Source of the DNA: Candidatus Latescibacterota bacterium
Lineage (GTDB): Bacteria; Latescibacterota; UBA2968; GCA-2709665
Assembly (NCBI GenBank): GCA_963667175.2
Contig: CAXXXF010000017.1
Coordinates: forward strand, 39,044-103,043
Reading direction: 5' to 3'
DNA length: 64,000 nucleotides
The notes beneath the pieces were generated by a model, which made no database searches, was not told where the DNA came from, and worked only from the letters and a program-made list of their open reading frames with translations. The translations under genes and the position numbers were made by a program. This document shows positions 40,655-62,584 of the stretch, in pieces. How positions within the stretch are numbered: the first letter of the stretch is position 1; the number at the start of each line of letters is the position of its first letter.

Positions 40655-40686
40655 CATGGACATAGCCGGACAGACCGGATAAAAGC
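40655..40686 (-). repeat. island repeat, degenerate instance 0, at the core/island junction
   Basis: The plus strand reads ATGGACATAGCCGGACAGACCGGATAAAAGC. The consensus is ATGGATGGACAGGATGAACAGGATAAAAC. Confidence 0.3.
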
Positions 40687-40794
40687 ATGCGAACAAAAAA
40701 GCGGTTCAACGGCGAAAGTCACGCCGATCAGATCGGGAGTCGCTGCTGAGGAAGAGACACGATCAACTCATACGGTTTTTCCTGTACATTCTTT

Positions 40795-40886
40795 AGTGGT
40801 CCTGGTTTGCCCCTTTTGTGTTCTTTGTGCCTTTTGTGGCTTTCGTAGATTTTCGTGTTTTATCCTGTTCATCCTGTCCATCCATG
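40795..40886 (+). repeat. island repeat, instance 1 (long form), ending 26 nt before the hsdR start
   Basis: GGTCCTGG...(CACAAAAGG/CGTAGA-type tract)...TTTATCCTGTTCATCCTGTCCATCCATG. Confidence 0.7.
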
Positions 40887-40912
40887 TTGGTTAATTTCTG
40901 ATAAGACATCAA

Positions 40913-43441
40913 ATGAACGAAGCAGCGGCGAGGATCAAGATCAACAAACTGCTCGAGGCGGCGGGGTGGCGGTTCTTCGATGATGAAGGCAAGCCCGCCA
41001 ACGTTCGCGTCGAAGCGAGCGTCAAGCTGAAGAAAGCCGACCTGGACGCATTGGGCGAAGACTTCGAGAACGCGACGGGACACATAGACTTCCTCCTCCT
41101 TGACGCAAAAGGCTTCCCGCTCATCGTCCTGGAGGCCAAGTCGGAGGACAAGAACCCGCTGGTGGGCAAGGAACAGGCGCGGAAGTACGCCCGCTCTCAG
41201 AACTGCCGCTTCGTTATCCTGTCAAACGGCAATCTGCATTACTTCTGGGACCTCGAGAGAGGCAATCCGTACCTCATCACCTCGTTCCCCACGCCGGACT
41301 CCGTTACCAACTACAACAAAGTCCGGCCCAACCCCCAGCGCCTGGTCGATGAGCCCGTCAGCGAGGATTACATCGTACTCACCCTGCGGCCGAATTATGC
41401 CTCGGAAGCGGCGTGGACAAACGAGGCTGAACGCCCCGCTTTCATCAAATCCAACAAACTGAGTTTCCTGCGCCCCTACCAGCTCCGGGCCGTTCATGCG
41501 CTTCAGCGTGCGGTAAAGGACGGGAAGGACCGGTTCCTGTTCGAGATGGCCACCGGAACGGGCAAGACCCTTGTCTCAGCCGCGGTGATCAAGCTCTTTC
41601 TGCGCTCCGGCAATGCCTCCCGCGCGCTGTTTCTCGTCGACCGGCTGGAACTCGAGGAGCAGGCGCGGAAGGTCTTCACCGCCCTGCTTTCGGCGGACTT
41701 CCAGACGGTGATCTACAAGGAACGGCGCGACGACTGGCGGTCCGCCGAAATCGTCGTCACGACGGTCCAGTCGCTGCTGTTCAATAACAAGTACCAGTCG
41801 CTTTTCTCCCCCACCGACTTCGACCTCGTCATCTCCGACGAAGCGCACCGGTCCATCGGCGGCAACGCCCGGTCCGTGTTCGACTATTTCGTCGGGTACA
41901 AACTGGGCCTGACCGCGACCCCCCGGGACTATCTGAAGGGATTCGACGATTCCCGCCCGACCACGCGGGACCCGCGCGAAGCCGAACGCCGTTTGCTCCT
42001 GGACACCTACCGCACCTTCGGGTGTGAAAGCGGGCAGCCCACGTTCAAGTACTCCCTGCTCGACGGCGTGAAGGACGGCTATCTGATCAACCCGACGGTC
42101 GTGGACGCGCGAACGAAAGTGACCACGGAGTTACTTTCGGAACAGGGATTTGTCGTCTCCTTTACGGACGATGAGGGAGAAGAACAGGAAGAGGCCTACA
42201 AAAAGCGTGAGTTCGAGAAGCGATTCTACTCCGACGCGACCAACCAGCTGTTCTGTAAGACTTTTCTTGAGAACGCGATCCGGGATCCGGTCAGCGGAGA
42301 AATCGGCAAGTCCATTATCTTCGCCGTCAGTCAGAAGCACGCGGCAAGATTGACTCAGATCCTCAACGCAATAGCCCACATGATGTTTCCGGACAGATAC
42401 CAGTCGGACTTTGCCGTGCAGGTCACGTCGCAGATCACGGATGCCCAACAGTTTACCGTGAATTTCAGCAACAACAACCTGCTCGGTTCCGGCAACTTCC
42501 TCCCTGAGTATCTGACGAGCAAATCGAGGGTCTGCGTCACGGTCGGCATGATGACCACGGGGTACGATTGCACGGATATTCTGAACCTGGGTCTGTTCCG
42601 CCCGATCTTCTCGCCCACCGACTTCATCCAGATCAAGGGGAGAGGCACAAGGAAGCATAACTTCCTCGAACAGTCGCTTAATCCGGCGATCGCGGAACGC
42701 GTAGACGAGCCCGATAAGACCGCGTTCAAACTGTTCGACTTCTTTGCCAATTGCGAATACTTCGAAGCGGAGTTTAACTACGACGAAGTGTTGGGATTGC
42801 CTGTCTTCAAAGACGCCCATGAACGAGAGGACTCGGAATCACAGAGTGCGGACGTGGGTACGTATGAGTACCTGGGGAGAGACATCCTGTCGACCATCAA
42901 GGTCGAGGCCGTCGGTGAGGAAGGGATGAAGATCGACCGGATGTTCTTCGAGAAATTCGAGGATGCCGTCCGGAAGGACGACGTCATTGCGCAGGCCGTT
43001 GAGGCGGGGCAGTGGGACCGGGTCATCGACTACGTCAACCGGGAAGTCTTCGACCGGCCCGAGGAGTTTTACACGCTCGAAAAGCTGCGCAAAGCAGCGG
43101 CCGTGGACCGGCGGATCACCCTTCGGGAGATTCTGGAGAAGGTGTTCGGGCTGATCCCCCGATTCAAATCCAAGGACGAAATGCTGGAAGAGGAATTCGG
43201 GAAGTTCGTGGCCGACTACACCCCCGAACAGGTCGATGCCATCCCCGCGATCAAGAATTACTTCAAGGCGTACGTCACCAGCGACCAGATCCGCCACATC
43301 ATCGAAAACCGGGACTACACCGGCCTGGCCACCAACCCCGTACTCTCAATGAAGGACCTTGGCGCCGTACCGGAGAAATACCGCAAACTCGTCCCCGAAT
43401 ACGTTAAGGACTACGTCCCGCTAAATCAATTCGCCGCGTAG
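40913..43441 (+). CDS. hsdR: type I restriction enzyme R subunit (N-terminal nuclease, DEAH helicase, EcoEI-R-like C-terminal domain)
   Basis: MNEAAARIKINKLLEAAGWRF...DFLLLD...LEAK (PD-ExK-like). Walker A MATGTGKT. DEAH box LVISDEAHRS. Confidence 0.85.
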   Translation: MNEAAARIKINKLLEAAGWRFFDDEGKPANVRVEASVKLKKADLDALGEDFENATGHIDFLLLDAKGFPLIVLEAKSEDKNPLVGKEQARKYARSQNCRFVILSNGNLHYFWDLERGNPYLITSFPTPDSVTNYNKVRPNPQRLVDEPVSEDYIVLTLRPNYASEAAWTNEAERPAFIKSNKLSFLRPYQLRAVHALQRAVKDGKDRFLFEMATGTGKTLVSAAVIKLFLRSGNASRALFLVDRLELEEQARKVFTALLSADFQTVIYKERRDDWRSAEIVVTTVQSLLFNNKYQSLFSPTDFDLVISDEAHRSIGGNARSVFDYFVGYKLGLTATPRDYLKGFDDSRPTTRDPREAERRLLLDTYRTFGCESGQPTFKYSLLDGVKDGYLINPTVVDARTKVTTELLSEQGFVVSFTDDEGEEQEEAYKKREFEKRFYSDATNQLFCKTFLENAIRDPVSGEIGKSIIFAVSQKHAARLTQILNAIAHMMFPDRYQSDFAVQVTSQITDAQQFTVNFSNNNLLGSGNFLPEYLTSKSRVCVTVGMMTTGYDCTDILNLGLFRPIFSPTDFIQIKGRGTRKHNFLEQSLNPAIAERVDEPDKTAFKLFDFFANCEYFEAEFNYDEVLGLPVFKDAHEREDSESQSADVGTYEYLGRDILSTIKVEAVGEEGMKIDRMFFEKFEDAVRKDDVIAQAVEAGQWDRVIDYVNREVFDRPEEFYTLEKLRKAAAVDRRITLREILEKVFGLIPRFKSKDEMLEEEFGKFVADYTPEQVDAIPAIKNYFKAYVTSDQIRHIIENRDYTGLATNPVLSMKDLGAVPEKYRKLVPEYVKDYVPLNQFAA

Positions 43442-43469
43442 AATCTTTAATACAAAGAGCCGGAACTTA

Positions 43470-44227
<758 letters not shown>

Positions 44228-44330
44228 CATGGATGAACAGGATGGACAGGATAAAACCAAAAGGCACGAAAAAACGAACTTCAGAAACTACGAAACACGC
44301 GAAAAAGCGCGAAAAATGCACGAGAAAAAA
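44228..44330 (-). repeat. island repeat, instance 2 (long form), split by intron copy 1 (remainder TAAGTTCCG at 43461-43469)
   Basis: The plus strand reads CATGGATGAACAGGATGGACAGGATAAAACCAAAAGGCACGAAAAAACG.... Confidence 0.7.
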
Positions 44331-44571
44331 CCGAAAAGCACGACAAAGGCGCGAGAAAACGAGGAACGGCTGGGAATCGATTCACCATAGAACGCGGGTC
44401 ATCACTCCGCCCACCCCGAAACCCCAGCGTTTGCCGGCCAGCCCGACTCCGGATTCTTAATGGATTTCGTTACATTTTCCGCTGATGTTATTGAAAATCA
44501 ACCGATTATATAACAAATCCACCTGTTTTCATGGATAATTCGAGATAAACCTCAACTTTTTTCTCAAATAC

Positions 44572-44601
44572 AAAAAAAATCCCACGAGCCGAAACCCGTG
44601 G
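44572..44601 (-). terminator. minus-strand intrinsic terminator-like hairpin (CCCACG-9 nt-CGTGGG plus T8)
   Basis: Seen in the AT-rich spacer upstream of hsdM. The transcript it would terminate is unknown. Confidence 0.4.
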
Positions 44602-44821
44602 GGCCTGCAATAAGACATTATAGTCGATTTGCAAGAGCCAATAAAACATCCAGACAAACACAATATACATTGAAAATCACATGAAAACAAGACTCTTTCT
44701 CAACGAAGTTCTGCATTCTCGAACCGTCAATTACAAGGCAGTGTTCAGCAACAAGCTCCGGATGATGAATACAACTGCAGCGGCTGGAATCGTTGATGCG
44801 TTGGCTGAACCCGATGTTTTT

Positions 44822-44866
44822 GGTCCAGTGCTTTTATCCTGTTCATCTTGTCCATCCATGTAAGTT
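44822..44866 (+). repeat. island repeat, instance 3 (short form), unoccupied intron site 18 nt before the hsdM start
   Basis: GGTCCAGTGCTTTTATCCTGTTCATCTTGTCCATCCATG|TAAGTT. Confidence 0.7.
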
Positions 44867-44878
44867 TGAGGTTTTTCG

Positions 44879-47464
44879 ATGTTAGACGCTGAAACGAAAC
44901 GCCGTATAGATACTGCCCGCGATATCCTGGTCGGGAAGGTGCCGGATCCCAAGAGTCAGGTGGAGCAGATCACCATCGCGTTGATCTACAAGTTCATGGA
45001 CGACATGGACGCCGTGAGCGAGGAACTCGGCGGCACGCGGAGGTTCTTCGCCGGCGAGTTCGCCCGGTTCGGATGGCCGAAGCTGATGCGCTCCGGTCTG
45101 GGCGGACATGAGATGCTCAACGTCTACGCCGAAGCCATCGACCGCATGCCCGAGAACCCCGGTATTCCGCCGCTTTTCAGGGACATCTTCAACAACGCGT
45201 ATCTCCCCTATCGCGACCCGGAAACGCTCCGCGCCTTTTTGAAGGTCATCGACGAGTTTACGTACGACCACAGCGAGCGCCTCGGCGACGCCTTCGAGTA
45301 CCTGCTCTCGGTCCTGGGTTCGCAGGGCGACGCGGGCCAGTTCCGCACCCCGCGCCACATCATCGACTTCATCGTCGCAGTGATCGACCCGAAGAAAAAC
45401 GAATCCATCCTGGACCCGGCCTGCGGCACCGCCGGGTTTCTGATTTCGTCGTACAAGCACATTGTCGAGGCCAACACCGACGACGACGGAAACAGCACGC
45501 TCACGCCCGACGAACGGGAAAAACTCACGGCAAACTTCAAGGGCTACGACATTTCACCCGACATGGTCCGCCTGTCGCTGGTGAACATGTACCTCCACGG
45601 CTTCCAGGACCCGCACATCTTCGAATACGACACCCTCACCAGCGAGGACCGATGGAACGAATACGCCGACGTGATTCTGGCCAATCCGCCGTTCATGTCG
45701 CCGAAGGGCGGAATCCGCCCGCACAACCGCTTTTCCGTGAAATCCAAACGTAGCGAAGTGCTGTTCGTGGACTACATGGCCGAACACCTCACACCATCCG
45801 GCCGGGCCGGGATCATCGTTCCTGAGGGCATCATCTTCCAGAGCCAGAACGCCCACAAACAGCTTCGCAAGATGCTTGTCGAGGAGTATCTGATCGCCGT
45901 CGCCTCCCTCCCCGCGGGCGTCTTCAATCCCTACTCCGGCGTCAAGACATCCATCCTCATCCTCGACAAAGCCCTGGCGAAAAGAACCGACAGCATCGCC
46001 TTCTTCAAGGTAGAAAACGACGGCTTCGACCTTGGCGCCCAGCGCAGAACGATCGACCAGAACGACCTCCTGCGGACCCAGCAGGCTGTGAAGGAATACA
46101 TGGGCAATGTTGGAAACATGGATGGACCTGTCTGCCGTGCCGGGCACGGCACAGGCAGGCAGGATGGGCAGGATAAAGGCGAACCACCCCCCGCCGCCGA
46201 TCAGTCAATCCTGGAGCAACTCATTCAGCAAGGGACCGCCCTCATCGCAAAAAAAGACAAGATCGCGGAGAACGGGGAATACAACCTGAGTGGGGAGAGG
46301 TATAGGGAATACAGAACCAACGATACAAAATACGCCTGGGTAAACCTTGGCGAAATTATCTTGGGCAAACCGACGTACGGTTCCGGGGCACGCAAAGTTA
46401 CATACGATAACAAAGTACGATATGTGCGGATAACTGACATCACAGACGACGGAGAACTCCGTTCAAACGATTCAGTTTCGCCTTCACTAATCGAGCCAGA
46501 CCTCTTCTTGAAACCTGGTGACCTGCTTATCGCACGCTCGGGCTCCGTTGGACGTACCTACATGCACGGAAATCAGCAAGGAAATTATCAATACGCTGGT
46601 TACTTGATTCGTTTCCGTATCGATCCGACTAAAGCCGTTCCTGAATTTGTTTATCACGTAACCAAGTCAGAGACGTGGCGCGAATGGATAGACAGTAACT
46701 CGAAGACGGGCACGCTTACCAATATTAACGCGAGACAGTATTCGAGCTTCAGTTTTCCCCTACCGCCTCTGGATGTGCAGCGGGAAATTGTGGAGGAGAT
46801 TGAGGGGTATCAGCGGGTGATCAATGGCGCGCGCGCAGTCATCGAAAACTACCGGCCGCATATCCCCATCGACCCCGACTGGCCGATGGTGCATGTAGGT
46901 TCGCTTGCAAATATCGTCAGGGGCAGTTCTCCCCGCCCGAAGAGTGATCCGAGATATTACGGTGGTCCTATTCCACGACTCATGGTCGCGGACATAACAC
47001 GAGACGGGATGTATGCAACACCTCGACTTGACTCATTGACCATTGAAGGAGCAGTTAAAAGCCGTCCTATGAAAAAGGGGGATGTAGTTGTCACCGTGAG
47101 CGGCAATCCTGGACTGCCAACTATTCTGGCTACGGACGCATGCATTCATGACGGATTCGTTGGACTACGCAATCTGAAGTGTGATGTGGTGCTACCTACG
47201 TTTCTCTATTATTGCCTCCTCGCACAGCATGATCTGCATGGTACCCAATCGGTAGGTGCCGTGTTCAAGAATCTCACAACACATCAAATACGGGACTTTA
47301 GAATTCCTCTGCCTAACTGTGAAACCCAGCAAGCCATCGTCGCCGAGATTGATGCCGAACAGGCCGCAGTCGCCGCAAATCGCGAACTGTTAACACGATT
47401 CGAAAAGAAGATTCAGGCGGCTATTGGGAGGGTGTGGGGCGAGACTAAGAAAAACGCGCAATAG
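44879..47464 (+). CDS. hsdM: type I R-M methyltransferase fused to a two-TRD specificity subunit (HsdM-HsdS fusion, 861 aa)
   Basis: Motif I LDPACGTAGFL and motif IV ILANPPFMSP. M-subunit tail IAENGEYNLSGERY. Two HsdS-like TRD/conserved-helix units follow (PLPPLDVQREIVEEIEG..., PLPNCETQQAIVAEIDA...). Confidence 0.88.
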   Translation: MLDAETKRRIDTARDILVGKVPDPKSQVEQITIALIYKFMDDMDAVSEELGGTRRFFAGEFARFGWPKLMRSGLGGHEMLNVYAEAIDRMPENPGIPPLFRDIFNNAYLPYRDPETLRAFLKVIDEFTYDHSERLGDAFEYLLSVLGSQGDAGQFRTPRHIIDFIVAVIDPKKNESILDPACGTAGFLISSYKHIVEANTDDDGNSTLTPDEREKLTANFKGYDISPDMVRLSLVNMYLHGFQDPHIFEYDTLTSEDRWNEYADVILANPPFMSPKGGIRPHNRFSVKSKRSEVLFVDYMAEHLTPSGRAGIIVPEGIIFQSQNAHKQLRKMLVEEYLIAVASLPAGVFNPYSGVKTSILILDKALAKRTDSIAFFKVENDGFDLGAQRRTIDQNDLLRTQQAVKEYMGNVGNMDGPVCRAGHGTGRQDGQDKGEPPPAADQSILEQLIQQGTALIAKKDKIAENGEYNLSGERYREYRTNDTKYAWVNLGEIILGKPTYGSGARKVTYDNKVRYVRITDITDDGELRSNDSVSPSLIEPDLFLKPGDLLIARSGSVGRTYMHGNQQGNYQYAGYLIRFRIDPTKAVPEFVYHVTKSETWREWIDSNSKTGTLTNINARQYSSFSFPLPPLDVQREIVEEIEGYQRVINGARAVIENYRPHIPIDPDWPMVHVGSLANIVRGSSPRPKSDPRYYGGPIPRLMVADITRDGMYATPRLDSLTIEGAVKSRPMKKGDVVVTVSGNPGLPTILATDACIHDGFVGLRNLKCDVVLPTFLYYCLLAQHDLHGTQSVGAVFKNLTTHQIRDFRIPLPNCETQQAIVAEIDAEQAAVAANRELLTRFEKKIQAAIGRVWGETKKNAQ
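46117..46190 (-). repeat. island repeat, instance 4, in frame inside hsdM and carrying a nested imperfect 33-nt hairpin
   Basis: ATGGATGGAC-[CTGTCTGCCGTGCCGGGCACGGCACAGGCAGGC]-AGGATGGGCAGGATAAAGGCGAACCACC, translated as MDGPVCRAGHGTGRQDGQDKGEPP. Confidence 0.6.
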
Positions 47465-47470
47465 GATGAG

Positions 47471-48193
47471 ATGATGGAAGACGCACTCGAGATGAACGAG
47501 TTTCTCCCAATTTCGTTCAAAACGATCGAAGAAGGCGAATACGTTGCTTTTCTTTGGAGTAGCTTTGAGTCGAATTTCACTCAGCGCAAATTCCAGTTCG
47601 CGTACCTGGCCTTTCACATGCTTGCGATGAGCATTGTATATTTCAAGATCTGGCAGATAAAGCACGCAAGGCCAGAGGAATTTAGAAGAGCCTTAATTGG
47701 CTTTAGTAATCACGAAGAAAAGGACATCCTGAAGACCACCTCACCCTTTACGTTTAGCATGGTATCGGAGCGCAGAGTTTTTCGTTTTCTCAAACTCGTT
47801 GGATGTGATAACGGCCAGATTGGAAATTACGCGAGACTTGTCGACGACCGCAATGAGATGGCACATCCGAATGGCCATATTTACGTAAAGTCACAGGACC
47901 AACTTGACGCGAAGATTAGGAATATCCTGAGGGTGATGAGTGACATTCATGCGCAATCCAAACCGATCGTCGAGTCCTGCTATGAAGAGTTTCTCTTGAG
48001 CAACTTCGACCCCGAGACCCGAGAGTACTTTGATGAGAAAGATCAGATCAGGGAAGTTCTAATCCACCATAATTACCTTTCTCCGAAGGACATTGAACTC
48101 TGCACCAGATTCAATGTCGGAGATCTGGCCAATCGGCGCGGATTTGAACATATGAAACGTCTTCACGATTGCTTACTTGCGGACTATGAATAA
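47471..48193 (+). CDS. hypothetical protein with a HEPN-type Rx4H motif (DUF4145-like?), embedded in the R-M operon
   Basis: LVDDRNEMAHPNG (R-N-x-x-A-H). It starts 7 nt after the hsdM-S stop. A hydrophobic helix FQFAYLAFHMLAMSIVYF lies near the N-terminus. Confidence 0.5.
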   Translation: MMEDALEMNEFLPISFKTIEEGEYVAFLWSSFESNFTQRKFQFAYLAFHMLAMSIVYFKIWQIKHARPEEFRRALIGFSNHEEKDILKTTSPFTFSMVSERRVFRFLKLVGCDNGQIGNYARLVDDRNEMAHPNGHIYVKSQDQLDAKIRNILRVMSDIHAQSKPIVESCYEEFLLSNFDPETREYFDEKDQIREVLIHHNYLSPKDIELCTRFNVGDLANRRGFEHMKRLHDCLLADYE

Positions 48194-48347
48194 AACGGAC
48201 TGTTCACACCTCACTGATTATCGTGCACGCCCCTGAATCAACACATACCAACAAGCCGCGGAACGTGTCAAGAGCAATGGGACGCCGAGAACGCCGACAG
48301 AGCGTTTAATTCCAGATGCGGATCCTAACTACGCAGTCATATGAGAA

Positions 48348-48896
48348 TTGAGGGAAACAGTGTTACGCGAGATAAGGTTACGAAATTTCCGCGGGTTTGA
48401 TGATCATCAGTTGCCGCTAAAGGATCTCACGGTAATCGTTGGAAAGAACAATGCAGGAAAGACAACATTGGTGGAAGCGCTCAGGCTTCTGTCCATAGTA
48501 GTATCCAGATACCGAAATTTGACATATCGAAGACCCCCCGTTTGGACAGACTTACCGCATCGTGACTATGGTGTTGCTCCTTCTTTAAGGAATCTGGAGA
48601 TAAATTTCCAAGGGATATTTCACAGGTATAATCCTCCACCAGCGATTTTGGAGGGGTTCTTCAAAAACGGCACGTCAGTTTCCATCTACGTGAATGACAC
48701 ACAAGAGATACATGCTACAGTAAGGGACTCAGAAGGCAACGTCGTCCGTAGTCGGGATCAAGCAAGCAAAACTGACCTTCTAGGTGTAAGTATTATGCCT
48801 CAGGTCACGCCGCTTCAACTTACTGAAAAAGTGCTTACGCCCGAATACGTTCGAAGAGCAATGTCATCTGCATTGTCCTCATTGCATTTCGGAACG
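48348..48896 (+). pseudogene. OLD/AAA15-type ABC ATPase-nuclease, N-terminal fragment (Walker A), truncated by the IS3 insertion
   Basis: LREIRLRNFRGFDDHQLPLKDLTVIVGKNNAGKTTLVEAL. The reading frame runs into the IS end at 48897. Confidence 0.7.
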
Positions 48897-48929
48897 TGTC
48901 AATAGAAATGAGACACCTCCCGTTGGGGT

Positions 48930-50002
48930 TTAGTGTAGCAGTTGTTGGCATTCGATGGTGTTCTGTGGTTGGTTAATCCAGACTTGGTCTGGAACGTGTG
49001 GTGGTCGAGGATGCCCCTTAACAAATCGTTCAGGGTGGTTGTGATAAGCCTGATCCAGCACCGATTGTCTGGCGGCTTGCACCTGCTGTGTGAGCCCATG
49101 GTGGACGGTGTCGGGCGTGAGTAAGCCCAGTCCGCTGTGCCGGTGTTGCGTGTTGTACCAGGAAAAGAAGGTCTGTAAATAGGTACGGGCTTCTTGCGGA
49201 CCGGTGAAGCGCCCGGGGTATGAAGGCGCGTATTTGAGCGTTTTGAACTGGCTTTCGGAATACGGGTTGTCATCGGAGACGCGGGGTCGAGCGTAGCTGG
49301 CCAGGATGTCGAGGTCCATCAGCAACTGCGAAAACGTCTTGGCTGTCATGGGTGCGCCGCGGTCCTGGTGCAGCGTCAGTTGTCGGGGTTGAATGCCCTG
49401 CTTGTTGCAGGCGTTGGTGATCAGGCGCTTGGCGTATGTGGCGCTTTCTCTTGTGGCGACCATCCAGGCCACGACATAGCGTGAGAACAGATCCAGTACG
49501 ACGTAGAGGGGATAGGTTTCCCACTTGCGGGTTCCTGGCAGCCGCGTGATATCCCATGTCCAGACCTGGTTGGGCGCATCCGCCATCAAGCGGGGCGGTT
49601 CCAGACGTGGATGACGCCGCTGGTGTCGCCGCTGGGGCACCTCTCCTGCATCGTGCAGCAGACGGTACATGGTCCGGATCGAGCAGACATACCGCCCTTC
49701 CTCGAGCAGCGCGGCGTAGACTGCCGGTGGCGCCTGGTCTACGAAGCGGTCCTCGTGCAGGATGTCCAGCACGGTAGCGCGCTCGTTTTGGGAAAGCGCA
49801 CGTGGCGACGAGGACCGGGCGCCACGAGGCCCGCGTTGGGCTGGCTGACGCGCACGGTAGACCGATGCCCGCGCCACACCCAGCGCCCGGCACGCGGAAG
49901 CCAACCCGACCTTCGGGGCCAGTTGTTCTGCCGCCCGTATCATACGTCGTCGTCGCCTGCTGGCGGATTCAGGGGGATGCCCAGGATCTCGGAGGCTTTT
50001 TT
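48930..50002 (-). CDS. IS3 OrfB (DDE integrase core), expressed as OrfAB through a -1 frameshift at the A-run (plus-strand T-run 49997-50004)
   Basis: WTWDITRLPG...YVVLDLFSRYVVAW...HQDRGAPMTAK...SDDNPYSESQFKTLKY. Confidence 0.85.
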
Positions 50003-50440: not shown

Positions 50441-50483
50441 TAATCTCGAAGGGGGAGTTGTCTCACTCTATATTGGCACGTAG

Positions 50484-51704: not shown

Positions 51705-51720
51705 GGCTTTCTCTATATAA

Positions 51721-53543: not shown

Positions 53544-53572
53544 TTGACATCAGATGGTGTTTTCATTAGATT
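53544..53572 (+). promoter_or_regulatory. candidate promoter TTGACA-N17-TAGATT for the CD-NTase operon
   Basis: Hexamers at 53544-53549 and 53567-53572. This would leave a 5' UTR of about 190 nt. Confidence 0.4.
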
Positions 53573-53767
53573 CCCCAAAGTTCTGAGGCACGTCCATTTA
53601 TTTGGATATTGAACCCTTACAACCAATGAGACTGCGATTGATGCATTCCGTTACCATAAATTCGCGTCTCCAGCACAGTTTCCGACTGCGAACCACCACA
53701 AAACCCAGATAGAGACCTGTCGCACTCCGCTTTCTGGGGGCTCTTTGGAAAAAACAGGAGGTGTTCA

Positions 53768-54715
53768 GTGGAATACTTGAACCAGCAGCTAATCAACTAC
53801 GTTAACCGGATCAAGCTTACTCAAGAGAAGAAATCCTCGTACGCCAATCAAATTGAGAATCTGAGGAACAATGTTCTCAGTGCCGTAAAGGAAATGGAGA
53901 ACACCAGGGTGACGAGAATATTACAAGCGGGGTCGTGGAAGAAGGGCACTGCGTTGGCCCCAAAGGGAGACTATCCGCTCGATATCGACATGGTGTTTTT
54001 CTTAGACGTTGATGAAGATTCTTCGTTTGACGCTGAGGATCTGCGCGAGGACATAATCGACGTTTTATGTGGAGCATATCCAAACAAGGAAAGATCGGAT
54101 TTTACTGATGGCCAAAAGACGATCGGCATTGTATTCAGGGGCACCGGGCTTGAAGCTGACATTGTGCCGTTTATCCCGGAGAAAGGAAATACGACATACG
54201 GCAGGCAACCTCGAAAAAAACTAAACTCAGGTGAGTTTAAAACCAGCGTTGACAAGCAACTGGAATTCATCAGCAAAATAAAAATTAAATGTTCGAATTT
54301 CACATCTATCGTCCGGATATTGAAGAGTTGGAGGAATTACAAGGAATTGGCACTTTCCTCCTTTGCGATTGAATTAGCGGCGGCCAATTTGGTTCACGAA
54401 GGGAGAATAAATGGCTCTTCGATAAATCAGGCGATTGTCAGCTTCTTCGAGTTCTTCGGCAACGGTAATCCCGTCGAGGTGTATTTCTCGGGCGCAATTG
54501 GGCCAAAGGACGGCAACGCCCCATGCATAGCGGATCCGACAAACAACGAAAACAATACGATCAGGATGTCTGATAGTGAGTGGGACGAGATCGTCGAGAT
54601 TGCCGAGAATAGCTTTGAGACGATTTCCTATGCGCAGGCAGTCAAGGAGACCGGAAAAACATTGGACCTGTGGAAGGAAGTTTTCGGACCGAGTTTCAAT
54701 ATTAATGAGGAGTAA
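53768..54715 (+). CDS. cGAS/DncV-like nucleotidyltransferase (CD-NTase / SMODS)
   Basis: Pol-beta NTase triad AGSWKKGTAL...PLDIDMVFF...LEADIVPF. OAS-like helical C-half (IVRILKSWRN). GTG start after AGGAGG. Confidence 0.8.
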   Translation: MEYLNQQLINYVNRIKLTQEKKSSYANQIENLRNNVLSAVKEMENTRVTRILQAGSWKKGTALAPKGDYPLDIDMVFFLDVDEDSSFDAEDLREDIIDVLCGAYPNKERSDFTDGQKTIGIVFRGTGLEADIVPFIPEKGNTTYGRQPRKKLNSGEFKTSVDKQLEFISKIKIKCSNFTSIVRILKSWRNYKELALSSFAIELAAANLVHEGRINGSSINQAIVSFFEFFGNGNPVEVYFSGAIGPKDGNAPCIADPTNNENNTIRMSDSEWDEIVEIAENSFETISYAQAVKETGKTLDLWKEVFGPSFNINEE

Positions 54716-54720
54716 AACTA

Positions 54721-55203
54721 ATGAACGCCATCACGCGAACATATACAAGAACAGACATACGTAGAGTCTTCGAGAACTTTAAAGCAGACCTGCAAATGCT
54801 TGCGGTAAGGACCCAAGCAATGGAATCAGACCATGCAGAAAGGTGTGCTGATGATGTCTGTATAATGGCCCAAGAAGAGTGTTTGAAGTGCGTCCATGTC
54901 CAATTGTATGACGCTGCCGGAAATCTCATTAAGGTCCATCGGTATTCCGTAAAAAAGGACATTATATCAGATGCGCAAAGGCCTGGTGGAAATAGATGGC
55001 CATGCTTACCGTCCGGGACACTATGCGTGATAGTAGAATACTCAGATAGGGACAAGGCGGAACAACTCAAAGTGTCAGGCAAGTTAGAGCTACCTTGGAG
55101 CCCGTCAGCCCTGTCGACCGACTACTCCAGAATGCGAAACGACGCCGGCAGACTCTATTCCAGTAATACCTACGGATTACGCAGGGATACATTCGCGGTC
55201 TAA
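54721..55203 (+). CDS. HORMA-like protein (Cap7-like), assigned by size, position and sequence pattern
   Basis: 160 aa between the CD-NTase and the AAA+ gene, as in type III CBASS. N-terminal TRTYTRTDIRRVFENFKADLQML and C-terminal ...RLYSSNTYGLRRDTF resemble bacterial HORMA proteins as I recall them. Confidence 0.5.
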   Translation: MNAITRTYTRTDIRRVFENFKADLQMLAVRTQAMESDHAERCADDVCIMAQEECLKCVHVQLYDAAGNLIKVHRYSVKKDIISDAQRPGGNRWPCLPSGTLCVIVEYSDRDKAEQLKVSGKLELPWSPSALSTDYSRMRNDAGRLYSSNTYGLRRDTFAV

Positions 55204-55216
55204 ACGGGACAAGATA

Positions 55217-56119
55217 ATGACACAAGATACGTTTGACGCTGTACGAGAGTTGCCATCAGATGATCTGGATGATATCGCTGGAACGCTTGTTGGATTCAAG
55301 AGACGTTATGAAACATTGAAAAATCATCTAATGATATCGTTAATGCCAGATCAGATAGAGCAATGGAGCAAAAAGCACCATGGACGGATTATTCCCCTAT
55401 GTGACGTTATTCGACATAGATATCCGGTTTTTCTTTTCAGTGGCGATGTTGGGACCGGAAAAACAGTAACGGCCGAATGTGCGGCAGACCGGTTGACAAG
55501 GGAAATGGGCAGAGAGGGTTTTTTGCTTAAGCTGAGCACACGCGTGAGAGGTAAGGGACTACATGGAGAAATGAGTCAACTTATTCAGGACGCCTTTGAG
55601 AATCTGACAACTCAAGCGGGCAAAAAACGACTTTCGTTTCTGCTGATAGACGAGGCAGATTCAATTGCATCACTTCGGTCCACGGAACAGATGCACCAGG
55701 AAGAAAAGGCTGCTGTTAATACTCTGATACAGAAAATCGATGAGATTCGCCAGGTGGACGGTCGGGCTGTTATATTTCTGTGCACCAACAGAGCAGATGT
55801 TATCGATCGAGCGGTTGTAAGGCGTGCTGCACTACACATGGAGTTTTCTCGACCAACTGGAGACGAGAGTTTAGAACTGCTGACGCGTGATCTTCAAGGA
55901 ATAGAATTGGCACCAGAAGAGCTATGCGAATTAGCGGCTCTAACCTCAATTGGAGGATTGTATGAGGAAAACGGTTATTCGTTCTCCGATTTTCGGTTGC
56001 GCTTTTATCCAGAAGCGCTTTCTCAGGCCTTTCCGGACCGCGCACTGACTTTCAAAGTTCTGAAGGATACAGTGTCAATCATAAAACCAAGCCCCCGGAT
56101 CGACAAAAATGCAAAATGA
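55217..56119 (+). CDS. TRIP13/Pch2-like AAA+ ATPase (Cap6-like)
   Basis: Walker A FSGDVGTGKT and Walker B FLLIDEADS. About 300 aa. Third gene of the operon. Confidence 0.7.
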   Translation: MTQDTFDAVRELPSDDLDDIAGTLVGFKRRYETLKNHLMISLMPDQIEQWSKKHHGRIIPLCDVIRHRYPVFLFSGDVGTGKTVTAECAADRLTREMGREGFLLKLSTRVRGKGLHGEMSQLIQDAFENLTTQAGKKRLSFLLIDEADSIASLRSTEQMHQEEKAAVNTLIQKIDEIRQVDGRAVIFLCTNRADVIDRAVVRRAALHMEFSRPTGDESLELLTRDLQGIELAPEELCELAALTSIGGLYEENGYSFSDFRLRFYPEALSQAFPDRALTFKVLKDTVSIIKPSPRIDKNAK

Positions 56120-56684
56120 CAGCATGAACTCAAGTCGGGATATTCTTAAGAAACTGAGAAACAAAGCGGAATTGTGCCGTTTCTGTCACGCAGCGCTGAA
56201 GGAACGATATAGCGGTTTCCGTAGCAGCAAAGAATTCAGCGTCGTGTTGTTATCCTTGATTTCTGCCGCATTAATCGGTTTCTACTATCGACGTGTTTGG
56301 ACTGGCGAACTGATCTTGTCCCTAATTTTTCTGATACCACTCTTCACGGCCATTGTTCAAGCACTGGACAACACCGTATTCAAATGGACCGAGAAAGTGG
56401 CGCGGCACGAGTCAGCGGTAGCAATATGGGGAGATTGGATTAGAGAAGCTGACTTTCTTGAGAAGCGTATCGAGCTATATTCCATTGAAGTGATAAACGA
56501 AAAAATCCAGAATATACAGGACAAGTACATTGTTTGTATGGGTAATACAACGCAGATACCAAATGCAAAGTTTCTGCAATTCAAAAGAAAATTCAGAATA
56601 CAGGTATTGAGTTCGAAGAAGATCGATGAGATGACATTGGAGGAATTAGAGTCTTACAGTAAGACTTCAACGCAAAATGCTTAG
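56109..56684 (+). CDS. 2-TM membrane protein, SLATT-like candidate effector
   Basis: N-terminal helix (ELCRFCHAALKERYSGF). Two TM helices (FSVVLLSLISAALIGFYY, LILSLIFLIPLFTAIVQAL). Helical C-terminal about 90 aa. It overlaps the AAA+ stop by 11 nt. Confidence 0.5.
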   Translation: MQNDSMNSSRDILKKLRNKAELCRFCHAALKERYSGFRSSKEFSVVLLSLISAALIGFYYRRVWTGELILSLIFLIPLFTAIVQALDNTVFKWTEKVARHESAVAIWGDWIREADFLEKRIELYSIEVINEKIQNIQDKYIVCMGNTTQIPNAKFLQFKRKFRIQVLSSKKIDEMTLEELESYSKTSTQNA

Positions 56685-56782
56685 AAGTTTGGTCACGCTG
56701 CTTGCATAGAGGTTGTCTTTCGCCACACCATCATCGTAATATTCTATGAGCTCTACGGGCGGGAAAAACGACCCATCCAAAT

Positions 56783-57247
56783 CTAACTCCGCAGATTTGC
56801 AATTGCTTCGTCAATGGAATACGAAGGGCCGGTGCTTGGCTTATGTTCCCGATCCAAGATTAACAGGTTCCAACTTACCTCTCGAAGGAGTGCACTGCAT
56901 ATCCGTGCGTTCTTATCCACGATCCTGAATTTTTCGTATGTGTTGGCGTCGAGTTTACTGAGCAATCTTCCTGTAGAGGTCCAGGTTTCCGAGGGTGTTC
57001 TTTTTCCGGTTTCCTCCAGGCCAGCGATTGCTTTCTCTACATCACCGTTACGACACATCGATTTGTAATTTTTCGGATTCTGCTCAAGCGATTGCAAAAA
57101 CTTACGCCAGTCAGCGATCACTTTCAAAATATGCTCGTTCGTTTCTTCAAACCCCTAGCGCATTTCTTTTAGCAGACTCTGCCGGATTTCTTCCTCCTTA
57201 TCCTGTCGGAATTCTTCCTCCATAGAGGGCTGTGACAGTTCATCCAT
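56783..57247 (-). pseudogene. hypothetical gene with an in-frame TAG (57155-57157)
   Basis: ATG 57247 MDELSQPSMEEEFRQDKEEEIRQSLLKEMR-TAG-GFEETNEHILKVIADWRKF... runs continuously in one frame. Confidence 0.4.
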
Positions 57248-57384
57248 GAATTGCCGTACTGGTCTGTATGTCGCAGACATCACATCCATCACTGCAGTGC
57301 CCATCTCGTTTTCTCCAGAAAGATATCTGGTTGTCTTTTATTACCAGGAACAGCAAATAGTGGCCAGTGGTCAGGAAGAGCAGT

Positions 57385-58145
<761 letters not shown>

Positions 58146-58721
58146 TGTCAGCTTTCATTTATTTTCAGGAGCAGCAAATAGTCGACATCCAGATCCAACC
58201 AAAGAAGAGTGGGAGGACGTAAACAATACGGTGCTCCCCGTAATAAATATCTTTCCGAAAAAATATGCACGCGTGTCCACAATGTCAACTGTGTTTTATG
58301 CAACTGTCAACGCAAAAAATAAAAGTCGAGTCCACTCTGAAAAGTGAGATTCGTGTAATTTTCCTTCAATTTTGGTTCAGAAGCGGCAATTTTCGACAAG
58401 ATCTATATCCGCATAAACCATTATATATGATATTTTTATACCAGATATGATTTCGATTTACTTCGGAATGACACATCGTTTTAGACCTCGTCAGACGAAA
58501 TTTGAGTCGTTTTCCACTCATTTCGAGAGTGTCTGCAAGAGCGTCTCAGATGAACTCAGGCTGGTTGGGGAGGCATTGTTCTAAGGATTCCCGTTACTTG
58601 CAGGTTCAGGGTTGAGCGCCTTGAAAATCGTAGAATTGAACCACCAAAAATTGGGAGTGCCCTCGAATTACTACTGGTCGCCGGCAACCGCGGACTCACT
58701 AAGCAAGTCGATAAAGATGGC

Positions 58722-59684
58722 ATGGAGGACGATGGATTGGGTGCGAAGGGATTTGCCATGAAGAATGTCATGCAGAAAATCAACATGCTCAATGATGATG
58801 AAATTTCGAAGTTTAAAAATCCGGCCCACCGAATCATGGAGGCCAGCGAGCAGATGTTTCGCTCGTTTCACGCGAATCCCATTCAACGCGACTTCTCGTC
58901 AGAATTCGAAGCCATTGCCGCCTGGAGTACAGTTACGTGCTGTTATTCCGGCATTGAGCAGGCCCTGAAGTGCCTATTAAAGATGCAAGGTACGTTCATT
59001 GACAAGCCTGCTCGGGAGGGTGGACACCGCCATCACGATATTGGGAAGCTCTTCAAGGATCTTGCTCCTGAAGAGCAGGATGTTCTCCGCGTCTCCTATG
59101 GTATTTATCGTTCGCTGCACGATTGCATTCCCCCCGAAACCGTCGACTGCTTCCTTGACGGCATTGACAAAGGGTACACGACGTGGCGCTATTTCCTCCT
59201 TGATGGACGAAAGTCGGACGATTGGCCGACGCCCCATCCCGGTGCGATGGTAGATATCTGGTCAGCACTTTCGAATATTATTTGTGCAAGGGTATACTGC
59301 AATCACGGACTTCAAACAGTGAAACAGCGAATCGACATCCATCTGCGTGAGGAACATATCCGTGCGGAGCGTGAGTCGGACGACGAGCGAGACATCCGAC
59401 ACATCAACGAAATCCTCGGCTGGCAGCAAAGGGATTGTTTCCTGGATATCAATGTCTACTCCAGTCTCCTCTATTGCCATGGGAACGGAAAACCACTCCA
59501 CGTCGACCCACAGTCGGCCTCCGTACCTGAGGAACTTACCAGACTGCCTGTACTGAAAGCATTCACTCGCAATGTACGGCAACGAAAAAACGACAATGAC
59601 CTTTCCCATTTTCAACACCGAGCCGAAACCAGCAGGATAGTTTGGAATTCTGCTACAGTTCGCTTCGAGACCGACTTCCATTGA
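58722..59684 (+). CDS. hypothetical protein with a classical HEPN-like helix pair (alternative start 58758)
   Basis: GIEQALKCLLKMQGTFIDKPAREGGHRHHDIGKLFKDL resembles the HEPN E..LK..L...R(x4-6)H.L..L pattern. The rest is unassigned. Confidence 0.35.
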   Translation: MEDDGLGAKGFAMKNVMQKINMLNDDEISKFKNPAHRIMEASEQMFRSFHANPIQRDFSSEFEAIAAWSTVTCCYSGIEQALKCLLKMQGTFIDKPAREGGHRHHDIGKLFKDLAPEEQDVLRVSYGIYRSLHDCIPPETVDCFLDGIDKGYTTWRYFLLDGRKSDDWPTPHPGAMVDIWSALSNIICARVYCNHGLQTVKQRIDIHLREEHIRAERESDDERDIRHINEILGWQQRDCFLDINVYSSLLYCHGNGKPLHVDPQSASVPEELTRLPVLKAFTRNVRQRKNDNDLSHFQHRAETSRIVWNSATVRFETDFH

Positions 59685-59773
59685 ATGACGTTCACCCCAT
59701 ATCATTCCGCTGGCAGCCTCCGATCACCATTTGGTGGATTTGAATCCGCGTCACTATTCCCGGTTTATTGTCA

Positions 59774-59800
59774 TTATCTCATCCGTCCTGTCCATCCATG
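59774..59800 (+). repeat. island repeat, instance 5
   Basis: TTATCTCATCCGTCCTGTCCATCCATG|TTGATTTTGAT. Confidence 0.6.
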
Positions 59801-59890
59801 TTGATTTTGATTCGCCAATTCCACCTGAGTTCGTGTAGAGGCTCATACGTCGGTTTCGAGCAACGTGCACAATCAGCTTCCACCGCTATT

Positions 59891-59940
59891 GCCCTGTTGT
59901 TGTGTTTTTATCCTGTTCATCCTGTCTATCCATGTAAGTT
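59891..59940 (+). repeat. island repeat, instance 6, unoccupied intron site
   Basis: GCCCTGTTGTTGTGTTTTTATCCTGTTCATCCTGTCTATCCATG|TAAGTT. Confidence 0.7.
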
Positions 59941-60082
59941 GCTTTGCCTTTTGGTTTTGAGATATCCATGTTGACCAATGTCGGAACAAGGCCGCGACGG
60001 TTTTTTTACGTCAGTATTCTGTGCCATCGTTGAACGAAACGCGTCAGTTTGGGTGATAAGCTTAAAGCCAGGGGTGGAGGCG

Positions 60083-61126
60083 ATGTTGACACGCCTGCAG
60101 ATACGAAATTTCCGCGGCTTCAATGCGCTCAAGATTGACCACTTAAATGCTATCAACCTGATTGCCGGGAAAAACAACTCTGGAAAGACAAGCCTGCTTG
60201 AAGCGATTTTTCTTCTGTCCGGAGCGGGGAATACTCAATTGGCAATGAATGACAATGGCATTCGGGACCTGGCGCCACACGGGGTTTCTACGGGCGATCC
60301 GTTCTGGAAACAGCTTTTTTTCAATCGGGATATGGGACGATCGATCGAGATTACCGCGCGTCGTTCAACACGCGATCAATTGACCCTTAAGATCACTTCG
60401 GAAAGACAGCCGACGACCGAAATACCCCTTGACCGAACGAATGGAACGTCCACTACAAATTTCCTCAACGAGCAATTGCTCGCGTTTGAGTATACTGGAC
60501 CGTCAGCGAATTCGGTAAAGAGCCAGATTCGTATGAAGGAACAGGGCTTTCAGGTAGATCAGCCTTCGACAAGTCCCCTGTTTCGGGCGATATTCCTCTC
60601 GTCTCGAAATCGGAATATCCACGAAGACGCAGTAAGATTAGGACGGTTAAGGCAGCAAAAGCAGGGAGATATGCTCTTGACGGCACTGCGGGTTTTCGAA
60701 CCGAGATTGCTGAGCATTGAGGATAATGCTTATAGCGGAACGCCCATGATCTGGGGAGATATCGGGTGGTCCGAATTGGTACCATTATCCGTAATGGGCG
60801 AAGGCATGACACAGATCGCCCGCCTTGTATTGGGTATCGCTTCCGTACCGGATGGCGTCGTTTTGGTGGATGAACTCGAAAATGGCATACACCACTCGGT
60901 ACTACCTGATGTATGGCGCGTCATCGATGAAGCGGCCAAACAGTTTCGGACTCAAATATTCGCAACCACGCACAGTCTGGAATGCGTCATTGCAGCTCAT
61001 GATTCTCTCAGAAAGGACAGGTTCCGGCTACACAGGCTTGAGATTACTGAGAACACAAGCCGCTGTGTCACATACGAACCTGAATCAATCGATTCGGCAA
61101 TCCGCCATAATCTCGAGGTTCGATAG
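60083..61126 (+). CDS. AAA15/AAA21-type ABC ATPase (defence-associated family)
   Basis: MLTRLQIRNFRGFNALKIDHLNAINLIAGKNNSGKTSLLEAI...VLVDELENGIHHS...FATTHSLECV. Confidence 0.8.
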   Translation: MLTRLQIRNFRGFNALKIDHLNAINLIAGKNNSGKTSLLEAIFLLSGAGNTQLAMNDNGIRDLAPHGVSTGDPFWKQLFFNRDMGRSIEITARRSTRDQLTLKITSERQPTTEIPLDRTNGTSTTNFLNEQLLAFEYTGPSANSVKSQIRMKEQGFQVDQPSTSPLFRAIFLSSRNRNIHEDAVRLGRLRQQKQGDMLLTALRVFEPRLLSIEDNAYSGTPMIWGDIGWSELVPLSVMGEGMTQIARLVLGIASVPDGVVLVDELENGIHHSVLPDVWRVIDEAAKQFRTQIFATTHSLECVIAAHDSLRKDRFRLHRLEITENTSRCVTYEPESIDSAIRHNLEVR

Positions 61127-61242: not shown

Positions 61243-61287
61243 CTGCCCTGTTTTGTGGTTTTATCCTGTCCATCCTGTCTCTCCGTG
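61243..61287 (+). repeat. island repeat, instance 7
   Basis: CTGCCCTGTTTTGTGGTTTTATCCTGTCCATCCTGTCTCTCCGTG|TTTGATGG. The following 70 or so nt resemble the segment after instance 5. Confidence 0.6.
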
Positions 61288-61501
61288 TTTGATGGTCTTG
61301 AACTGCATTTTCCACGTGAGTCCGTGTCGGCGCTCAGGCGTCGGCTTCGAACAACAAGCGCATATCGGTCCATCCGTGTAAATAATCGGAAATTGCGGGA
61401 TCCTGTGCGCCGTCGCTTCAAACATCCGTTTTACGACACCGAAAAGCCCCACACTCGCCAGGTCGAATGCGGGGCCGTTCCAAATCCGGACATGCCGGCG
61501 A

Positions 61502-61765
61502 CTAATCCGAGAACGCCTTGAATGCTAGCCCTGCGATAGCCAGTACCGTCGCAACCTGCAACGGTACGATCCAACGGTACAGCCCGTCGATCCTGGCTTC
61601 CAGGGACATGCGGGTCGTGTCAATCCTGGCGTCCACCGCGTCTATCTTTGTCTCCATCCGCCCCAAACGGACGTCGATCTGTTCGACCACGCCATCAAGA
61701 CGGGCAATACGCCCCTCATGGTCCAGAGGATGCGGACGTTTCTGCGCTGGATTCGTCTCGGCCAT
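61502..61765 (-). CDS. small coiled-coil/TM-anchor protein (XhlA-like architecture), copy B
   Basis: MAETNPAQKRPHPLDHEGRIARLDGVVEQIDVRLGRMETKIDAVDARID...LQVATVLAIAGLAFKAF. Confidence 0.45.
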   Translation of the reverse strand: MAETNPAQKRPHPLDHEGRIARLDGVVEQIDVRLGRMETKIDAVDARIDTTRMSLEARIDGLYRWIVPLQVATVLAIAGLAFKAFSD

Positions 61766-61897
61766 CGTCTTTCATCTCCACTTGACGATATTATATGGTC
61801 AGTTGTGAAGTCAGATTGGTCAGAGTCGTACTGTGCGGTCCAGGGTGGGAGGACTCATCGCCATAATGCGGAATAGGTAGCATTCCTCCCGCTATTT

Positions 61898-61928
61898 GGT
61901 TTTGTCCTGTTGATCCTGTCTATCCATG
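61898..61928 (+). repeat. island repeat, instance 8, overlapping the 3' end and stop codon of the 61920-62249 gene
   Basis: GGTTTTGTCCTGTTGATCCTGTCTATCCATG|TTTGCTGGTTTTGATCT. Confidence 0.6.
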
Positions 61929-62249
61929 TTTGCTGGTTTTGATCTCTTCCAACAGGTCGCGCAGTTCCTCGGCAATTCGAGGATCCGGCTTGCCAGCAAG
62001 CGCTTTGCTGGCTAACTGCTCTGCCAGGCGCGGCTGGTTGCAGTCCAAAGCCAGCCACCCGGCACTACGGTGTAATATCGAATAAGTTGGCTCCACCGGC
62101 TCGGACATCTCACCAAGAGCCTTGAGCTCCAGGTTCAGGGCCTGGTCAAACAACTCCTGTGACCGCTCCCTGTTTCCCCGTCGCCGTTCTTGATCGGCCA
62201 AAAACGCGGCATTCATGGCTTCGTCGTGGAATTTATCAACATCGCTCAT
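61920..62249 (-). CDS. small all-helical hypothetical protein (109 aa)
   Basis: MSDVDKFHDEAMNAAFLADQERRRGN...LAEQLASKALAGKPDPRIAEELRDLLEEIKTSKHG. The last codons and the stop lie in repeat instance 8. Confidence 0.4.
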   Translation of the reverse strand: MSDVDKFHDEAMNAAFLADQERRRGNRERSQELFDQALNLELKALGEMSEPVEPTYSILHRSAGWLALDCNQPRLAEQLASKALAGKPDPRIAEELRDLLEEIKTSKHG

Positions 62250-62554
62250 TTTTTCTGAACCTCTGCAACCCGAGTCCCCAAATCTACGACGATAACGTAC
62301 ATTTGCATGATGAATGGAAGTCACTTCAAAGTCGACTGTGTAAATGACCGGTGATGTTCGATTTGGCAATGTCAGAAATAATCGCCAATCGGTACAGCAC
62401 AGATGTATCTCTGATATTACGGGACAAGGGTTCGAACAACTGATTAAACCCAAATGCTGCACATAAGTATAGTATTTTTGTGGGAGATGTCAAGAGTCGA
62501 TGAATGACCGGAATCTGGCAATTTGAGCAATTTCAGTTGATCTGGTTTTGCGGG

Positions 62555-62584
62555 TCTGTTTTCTTTTCATCCTGCCCATCCATG
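62555..62584 (+). repeat. island repeat, instance 9
   Basis: GTCTGTTTTCTTTTCATCCTGCCCATCCATG|TTTGTTGGTTTTGATCT. Confidence 0.55.

Follow-up and report, generated by a model that had tools for sequence, protein, structure and literature searches.

A 9-nucleotide periodic repeat in a Latescibacterota defense island is probably the terminal arm of a small selfish element carrying a GxxExxY nuclease gene

Repetitive extragenic palindromes (REPs) are lineage-specific repeats that lie between genes in many copies, as inverted doublets with a short spacer (REPINs), and whose putative mobilizing gene, a REP-associated tyrosine transposase (RAYT) of the Y1/HUH type, is itself flanked by the repeat; they leave no target-site duplication. 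We analyzed a dispersed repeat sharing several of these traits in a 64,000-nucleotide (nt) stretch of DNA from Candidatus Latescibacterota bacterium (contig CAXXXF010000017.1, positions 39,044 to 103,043, forward strand; here called the window, with positions counted from its first letter). Unlike a REP, however, each copy of this repeat, here called an arm, is made of tandem 9-nt units with free positions rather than of a tight palindrome, lacks the GTAG tetranucleotide, and has a sequence common to many phyla, and the gene flanked by such arms encodes a PD-(D/E)XK nuclease of the GxxExxY family (PF13366/TIGR04256) instead of a RAYT.

Other described systems match the repeat in part. Miniature inverted-repeat transposable elements (MITEs) such as Correia/NEMIS likewise have terminal inverted repeats, measure 60 to 180 bp, lack open reading frames (ORFs), and occur in many copies next to gene starts and ends, at unrelated loci and with insertion polymorphism between related sequences. 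The present repeat differs from them in showing no target-site duplication and in a distribution that spans phyla; the arms recur on a partner element, the product of which is a PD-(D/E)XK nuclease and not a recognizable transposase. Rickettsia palindromic elements (RPEs) are comparable as palindromic selfish elements tolerated in frame in a coding gene (here hsdM), although their sequence is unrelated and, to our knowledge, they have no associated gene and are confined to one genus. Free-standing homing-endonuclease genes are also small nuclease genes placed between operon genes, co-directional with them and patchily distributed through horizontal transfer, but they have no inverted arms and leave no gene-less multicopy derivatives at unrelated loci. 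Integron attC sites, finally, also lie where cassette-like genes meet and consist of imperfect inverted repeats in which some bases stay unpaired upon folding; we rejected this identity because the GTTRRRY/RYYYAAC boxes are missing (outward, the arm reads ATCCATG-T-n-A-A-T) and different phyla share the primary sequence. Compared with a complete GxxExxY element, the window has the inverted arms, with tandem 9-nt units leading to ATCCATG-T, and not the complete form.

The explanation that we consider likely is a small selfish element with a GxxExxY nuclease gene, for which the repeat serves as the cis-acting terminal arm. Clustering of the ORFs adjoining arms yielded a single recurrent family of real proteins, 120 to 140 amino acids (aa) long, matching TIGR04256 ("GxxExxY protein") and PF13366 (PDDEXK_3) and ~70% identical over at least four phyla. 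The gene lay inside an arm pair in four of six cases (loci L018, L092, L111, and L107). The right arm came close after the stop codon in all four, directly adjoining it in L092, and in L018, L092, and L111 the left arm supplied the ATG and an N-terminal tail of the MDxQDxQD type, an N terminus also found in 81 of the 120 best database homologues. GxxExxY was the only recurrent cargo of wide arm pairs. In a reverse test, the best 80 of 569 metagenomic GxxExxY relatives were taken, 60 of which had enough flanking sequence. Within 110 nt, ACAGGATnnACAGGAT was present upstream of 37 of these 60 genes and ATCCTGTnnATCC... downstream of 40. The remaining genes had the same 9-nt periodic inverted arms with other 7-mers, namely, GGGGAT, ACACGGAT, ACGCAGAT, ACAAGAT, and ATCCCGT, and these variants follow the protein clades of GxxExxY.

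In the protein itself, the catalytic D, ExK, and QxxxY residues are invariant. An AlphaFold model had a confidence (pLDDT) of 86, with a disordered tail (pLDDT of <50), and its nearest folds were Cas4 SSO0001, lambda exonuclease, and the AdnAB/AddAB nuclease domains (template-modeling score of ~0.48). A PADLOC search returned two marginal PDC-M36A matches (best E value of ~1e-4), PHROGs gave no match, and no relative was found by sequence in the PDB. More than 7,800 homologues, among 8,000 candidates, passed an E value of 1e-10. The table entry for PDDEXK_3 in PMC3424549 reads "unknown; multiple transfers." Searches of the full-text literature by sequence, peptide, and family name found no description of the element. 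The repeat thus did not turn out to be a known MITE or REP family, a possibility raised in the initial annotation of the window, and the element is apparently undescribed: similar to MITEs and REPINs, but set apart by its unconventional partner gene and by being conserved to an unusual degree from phylum to phylum.

A complete element measures ~0.45 to 0.55 kb and consists of a left arm, CATGGATnnACAGGATnnACAGGAT, whose ATG often acts as the start codon and gives rise to the MDxQDxQD tail; a single gene, whose GxxExxY-family product is a minimal PD-(D/E)XK nuclease of RecB/Cas4-like type; and a right arm, ATCCTGTnnATCCTGTnnATCCATG-TnAAT. Gene-less derivatives, in the form of tight pairs, solo arms, and arrays of solo arms, multiply within genomes as MITEs and REPINs do. 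The 7-mers would then be conserved because a copy that loses the sites required for propagation leaves no descendants. By the logic that linked RAYTs to REPs, the element's own nuclease would be the most economical candidate reader of the arms, and we tentatively suggest that it may bind or cut the 7-mer sites, another trans-acting factor being the alternative.

The initial annotation had listed copies of the repeat between 40.6 and 62.6 kb, and pattern scans combined with direct reading recovered all of them at their coordinates, 10 to 11 copies of the general form (ATCCTGTnn)1-2 ATCCATG-T. In the window, the 28-mer core TTTATCCTGTNCATCCTGTCCATCCATG had six matches with up to three mismatches (0.00 expected) and the 14-mer CATCCTGTNCATCC had 10 with up to one mismatch (0.12 expected). 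A looser scan gave plus-strand arm ends at 40886, 44860, 59800, 59934, 61287, 61928, and 62584 and, on the opposite strand, two arms at 44228-44255 and 46118-46177; one copy, the truncated arm end CCATCCGTG at 61370-61378, had been overlooked. Positions 1 to 40000 produced only chance-level three-mismatch matches to a 16-mer, again as annotated, and the G+C content drops from ~0.62 to ~0.50 across the same boundary at which the repeats begin (~40 kb). The term "island-restricted" is correct within the window only.

At the left edge of the repeat-bearing region, a degenerate left arm on the minus strand (CATGGACATAGCCGGACAGACCGGATAAAA, 40655-40686) pairs over ~170 nt with the plus-strand right arm at 40859-40887 (TTTATCCTGTTCATCCTGTCCATCCATG plus T). 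Both lie between the hicA stop and the hsdR start, the right arm ending 26 nt before the hsdR ATG (40913). It is preceded by the inner 9-nt periodic tract of the long form, made of nnTTTYGTG units (40795-40858, plus strand). The long forms are real and also 9-nt periodic, reading CCTTTTGTG TTCTTTGTG CCTTTTGTG GCTTTCGTA ... at 40815-40858, and so is the purine-rich complement, which occupies 44256-44345 (minus strand, with CACGAAAA-type units on the plus strand). That tract adjoins the left arm of the element between hsdR and hsdM (CATGGATGAACAGGATGGACAGGATAAA, 44228-44255, minus strand), whose right arm (44833-44861, plus strand) ends 18 nt before the hsdM ATG (44879). Further to the right, the plus strand carries a solo arm at 59773-59801, a linker at 59802-59906 (TTGATTTTGAT..TTCCACCTGAGTTCGTGT..GCTTCCACCGC..GCCCTGTTG), a solo arm at 59907-59935, ~150 nt before the likely start of an AAA_15/21 gene (60084), another after that gene at 61260-61288, and a linker with the truncated arm end at 61289-61378. 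A solo arm at 61901-61929, followed by TTTGCTGGTTTTGATCT, closes a 0.5-kb cassette, and a degenerate one at 62557-62585, 126 nt before the gene at 62711, sits between two divergent promoter-like sites (62493-62466, minus strand; 62648-62675, plus strand). The arm-to-start distances, the shared linker (70 to 110 nt), and the TTTGNTGGTTTTGATCT tail are all as first reported, and in a related genome linker and tail make up ~135-nt tandem units. Separately, TTATCCTGTC ... GTTCATCCATG at 57198-57248, with an interruption of ~30 nt, represents a split arm or, alternatively, a match by chance in a possibly frameshifted minus-strand ORF.

A tblastn search for a GxxExxY gene in the window returned nothing below an E value of 0.4, so every copy in it is a gene-less derivative. 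This includes the pair 44228(-)/44833(+) between hsdR and hsdM, inside which there is no nuclease gene. At the same position, however, a complete element is found in L107, L129, L133, L137, L139, L140, L142, and L144, whose hsdR-hsdM operons are orthologous to that of the window (70 to 85% amino acid identity). L147, a locus that holds only the element and hsdM, probably carries it too. The arm thus lies just upstream of hsdM because the element was inserted between hsdR and hsdM in 9 to 10 orthologous operons. The spacer of this pair in the window (44400-44700) has features of its own, a 28-nt match to intron domain I at 44446-44473 and, on the minus strand, a strong hairpin of terminator type (44602-44581) as well as a 10/12 promoter-like site (44532-44505), which may represent a small antisense transcription unit or intron debris.

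Comparison with L018, a locus of a Latescibacterota genome that is syntenic to the window at 82 to 92% nucleotide identity, placed copies at the boundaries of insertions and deletions. Positions 40190-59780 of the window are missing from L018, where arm arrays together with one intact GxxExxY element take their place, and the solo arm at 59773-59801 marks the right junction of this 19.6-kb segment. The cassette at 61379-61890, which begins right after the truncated arm end, is missing as well. The genome from which L018 derives has arms at no fewer than three distant loci. Gene-less pairs form families with conserved spacers, and in a 15-member family, only 14 of the 105 member pairs had common flanking sequence; the mostly different flanks argue for proliferation within genomes. 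The arms are the integral ends of a horizontally mobile gene cassette, of which gene-less copies multiply, and insertions and deletions occur at them. As a side observation, a small gene on the minus strand, encoding 87 aa and without a match in Pfam, occurs twice, at 61408-61707 and 52143-52442, with 81% nucleotide identity, and only the copy at 61.5 kb is bounded by arms and missing from L018.

The placement of copies at module boundaries, noted in the initial annotation, is supported by these junctions. One alternative to the nuclease-bearing element is that the arms are attC-like or dif-like recombination sites or cassette boundaries of a trans-acting site-specific recombinase and that GxxExxY is just the commonest cassette. 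In its favor, insertions and deletions are bounded by arms, genes are tightly packed against arm ends, target-site duplications are absent, and the flank ATGTTAAT loosely resembles what we take to be the XerD arm of the dif consensus. We regard this alternative as unlikely, since the ORFs of 40-64 kb include no integron integrase or other recombinase (their sole DDE enzyme is the transposase at 48930-50168), the flank is T-n-A-A and not GTTRRRY, the 7-mers of the arms vary together with the clade of the nuclease, and the nuclease gene is placed within an arm pair, whereas cassettes would sit between pairs.

The anatomy of the arms points to selection on individual sites. The arms, 25 to 30 nt in length, are terminal inverted repeats; pairs are mostly inverted with their CATG ends outward, and (-,+) pairs with 10- to 60-nt spacers are strongly over-represented. 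A logo anchored solely on ATCCATG downstream of independently selected GxxExxY genes read ATCCTG(T)nn ATCCTG(T)nn ATCCATG T n A A T. In it, each 9-nt unit has six to seven conserved positions and two free ones, the nn being near zero information, and the flanking T is invariant; among 392 arms, the first base outside was T in 93%, followed by nAA. The nn positions of paired arms matched at a frequency of 0.40, compared to 0.355 ± 0.024 in shuffled pairs, which is chance-like and argues for selection on each 7-mer as a site rather than on a stem. The repeat had initially been described as iterated sites rather than a simple hairpin REP; the 7+2 units bear this out, but copies are usually inverted doublets, which brings them closer to REPINs and MITEs than had been thought. 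Two further identities were tried and discarded: the DnaA box TTATCCACA has only TTATCC in common with the unit, its CACA half being different, and as an XerCD/dif-like site, ATGTTAAT is a loose match present in a subset of copies only.

The free nn positions also bear on whether the arms act as RNA, either as a processing or stability stem (RNase III type, as around rRNA intervening sequences) or, through the purine strand (CAGGAUGnA)n, as a CsrA/Rsm array. Inverted arms around a co-directionally transcribed gene inside operons would suit the former, and the reverse complement resembles CAGGAUG, which we take to be the consensus of CsrB-type repeats. Yet the nn positions show no compensatory pairing, the window copies are mostly solo arms in the pyrimidine sense, and solo arms and arrays could not form a stem. 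No Rfam family matched the arms, group II introns and one tRNA being the only matches in a scan of the window; and the 135-nt units folded no better than shuffled sequences (z-scores of -0.5 to +1.1), with no significant structure. Variant arms such as ACGCAGAT and ACAAGAT have no GGA, and a CsrA-binding array was rejected for this reason and for its wrong orientation. A role as RNA is thus slightly less probable again than that of a recombinase site.

Beyond the window, the exact 24-mer TCCTGTNNATCCTGTNNATCCATG was found at 120 loci or more in one-genome-per-species contigs, against ~1 match expected by chance according to our calculation (596 Gb, both strands, 20 specified bases). The hosts among the matches listed, many of them sponge-associated genome bins, include Dehalococcoidia and other Chloroflexota, Latescibacterota, Acidobacteriota, Verrucomicrobiota, Planctomycetota, Gammaproteobacteria, Betaproteobacteria, Nitrospirae, Hydrogenedentes, Gemmatimonadales, Desulfobacteraceae, and others, and the sequence flanking the arm is not conserved between phyla. 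A plasmid BLAST search with the arm gave only short marginal matches, several in Gemmatirosa megaplasmids, and the 24-mer was present in only four IMG/VR viral contigs. Among the viral arm carriers are L121, L123, and L124 (9677-9700); in L124 the arm opens a 175-aa ORF, and its tail runs on with a second 9-nt periodic tract (TKAQRQKAQREK).

The neighbors of the arm in other genomes are diverse and mainly housekeeping genes (rplS, glycerol kinase, short-chain dehydrogenase/reductase, NuoA, MogA, epimerase, flavin reductase, and YajQ); in Latescibacterota, the adjoining ORFs include some that we take, from their translations, to be a NUDIX protein, a ceramidase-like protein, and an S9 peptidase. 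A defense-specific role is therefore not supported. The initial annotation had raised such a role, and plus-oriented copies do precede hsdR, hsdM, AAA_15, and the 62711 gene by 18 to 150 nt, which would suit operators for island-encoded DNA-binding proteins controlling defense genes. However, no sigma-70-like promoter or terminator was found in the arms, one copy lies within a coding sequence and others lie downstream of genes, and with housekeeping neighbors in many phyla, we find the operator explanation highly improbable. Scatter irrespective of gene content, which that annotation had named as evidence against its view, was observed in other genomes and not inside the window.

The copy within a coding sequence is the minus-strand arm at 46118-46177 (MDGPVCRAGHGTGRQDGQDK), which has a nested GC palindrome and is translated in frame as part of hsdM, ahead of the C-terminal ENGEYNLSGERY motif. 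The same 64 nt are intergenic in L018 (98% identity), an arm element occupies the same point of hsdM in the orthologues L007 and L107, and in L140, L144, and L147, the linker is uninterrupted at that point. Translation of the left arm in HsdM and in most GxxExxY genes, with a period of three codons, might suggest selection on the low-complexity peptide MDxQDxQD, but this is the least credible of the explanations considered, given that synonymous sites do not vary, whereas each "x" codon has two free bases out of three, that the tail is predicted to be disordered, and that most copies are noncoding or antisense. In line with a constraint on nucleotides, the Asp codon was GAT in 24 of 24 cases in the arm versus 10 of 19 in the gene body. 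None of the rival explanations accounts for both the co-variation with nuclease clade and the housekeeping neighbors.

Arm ends also serve as insertion points for group II introns. An ORF-less intron on the minus strand (43470-44227) is inserted precisely where the 44228 arm has its outer end, and a second one, also ORF-less and on the minus strand, lies at 57385-58145. The Rfam matches to group II intron models were RF02003 at 102 bits and RF00029 at 46 bits. The GUGYG 5' and AY 3' ends were read from the sequence, and there is no intron-encoded protein. The two introns, each ~760 nt, are ~90% identical and differ in one 8-nt block, exon-binding site 1 (EBS1), with CCCATGGATC in one and ATTGTCAGCC in the other, each complementary to its own 5' exon. 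EBS1 of the intron at 43470-44227 (CATGGAT) pairs with the arm end ATCCATG. In another Latescibacterota genome (locus L065, 2525-4540), a copy 94 to 99% identical to this intron also lies right after the ATCCATG of an arm; as the loci are unrelated, this intron lineage homes to arm ends.

The element and its gene-less derivatives could account for the copies in the window as follows. Modules acquired by horizontal transfer probably brought them in, chiefly the type I restriction-modification operon, which has the element between hsdR and hsdM and a further copy in frame in hsdM, and they may also have spread locally in an accessory region tolerant of insertions. Their effects in the island would be by-products and not regulation: breakpoints for the gain and loss of modules, a safe multicopy homing site for a group II intron, and one tolerated in-frame insert. 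Except as breakpoints, the island copies are probably inert.

Several points weigh against this interpretation. The absence of target-site duplications (no 2- to 8-nt direct repeat at any offset exceeded the shuffled control, and the flanks prolong the inverted repeat) weighs against classical DDE transposition and would call for another mechanism, such as a nuclease combined with recombination or repair, or a single-strand hairpin route. We know of no PD-(D/E)XK protein of the GxxExxY family that has been shown to move DNA, and the nuclease could be cargo rather than engine. The insert at one site of hsdM in three diverged orthologues could be one old insertion kept for function. In addition, the motif-selected loci are skewed to the canonical 7-mer, and our view of the host genome is the 64-kb window, to which alone the enrichment of arms in the island applies. 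A broader proposal is put forward with more reserve than a role of the nuclease at the 7-mers: GxxExxY and its periodic arms might constitute an unrecognized class of mobile element, moved by a nuclease without target-site duplication, present over most bacterial phyla, with MITE-like progeny that fill accessory regions, insert in frame, and provide homing sites for group II introns.

Family searches of the ORFs identified the repeat-bearing region as a defense island. It comprises HicB/HicA (40203-40635), HsdR (40913-43441), HsdM fused to an HsdS-type domain (44879-47464), a module with a SMODS nucleotidyltransferase, a bacterial HORMA protein, and a TRIP13-like AAA ATPase (53768-56119), resembling a cyclic oligonucleotide-based antiphage signaling system (CBASS), the AAA_15/21 gene (59978-61126), and a HigB-like gene (63255-63593). 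The CBASS-like operon (53768-56684) includes a 191-aa ORF without family match, which may be its effector. An AAA_15/AAA_21 ATPase gene (48348-51704) appears to be split by an insertion sequence, whose rve-type transposase is encoded on the minus strand (48930-50168). Another dispersed palindromic element, ~130 nt long and bearing GAGACGG heptads along one half and CCGTCTC along the opposite one, is present in the core of the window (32957-33093 and 38950-39096) and in L031 (4636-4785) and L030 (78-205), where it directly abuts a repeat arm. A GC-rich, perfect-looking palindrome at 29510-29560 (CCTCCCCCTCTCCCCCCGGGAGAGGGGGCCGGGGGGAGAGG) is 94% identical to a stretch of L031.

GxxExxY/PDDEXK_3 is a very large family whose function is listed as unknown, and the arms and gene-less copies give it a testable role, that of a selfish nuclease cassette. 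The left arm would explain the odd MDxQDxQD-type N termini of thousands of annotated proteins, and the element would explain a class of spurious small ORFs in assembled genomes. Such repeats in defense islands should be regarded with caution and not be taken for regulatory sites. Finally, a 7+2 periodic site that is identical across phyla poses an unusual recognition problem.

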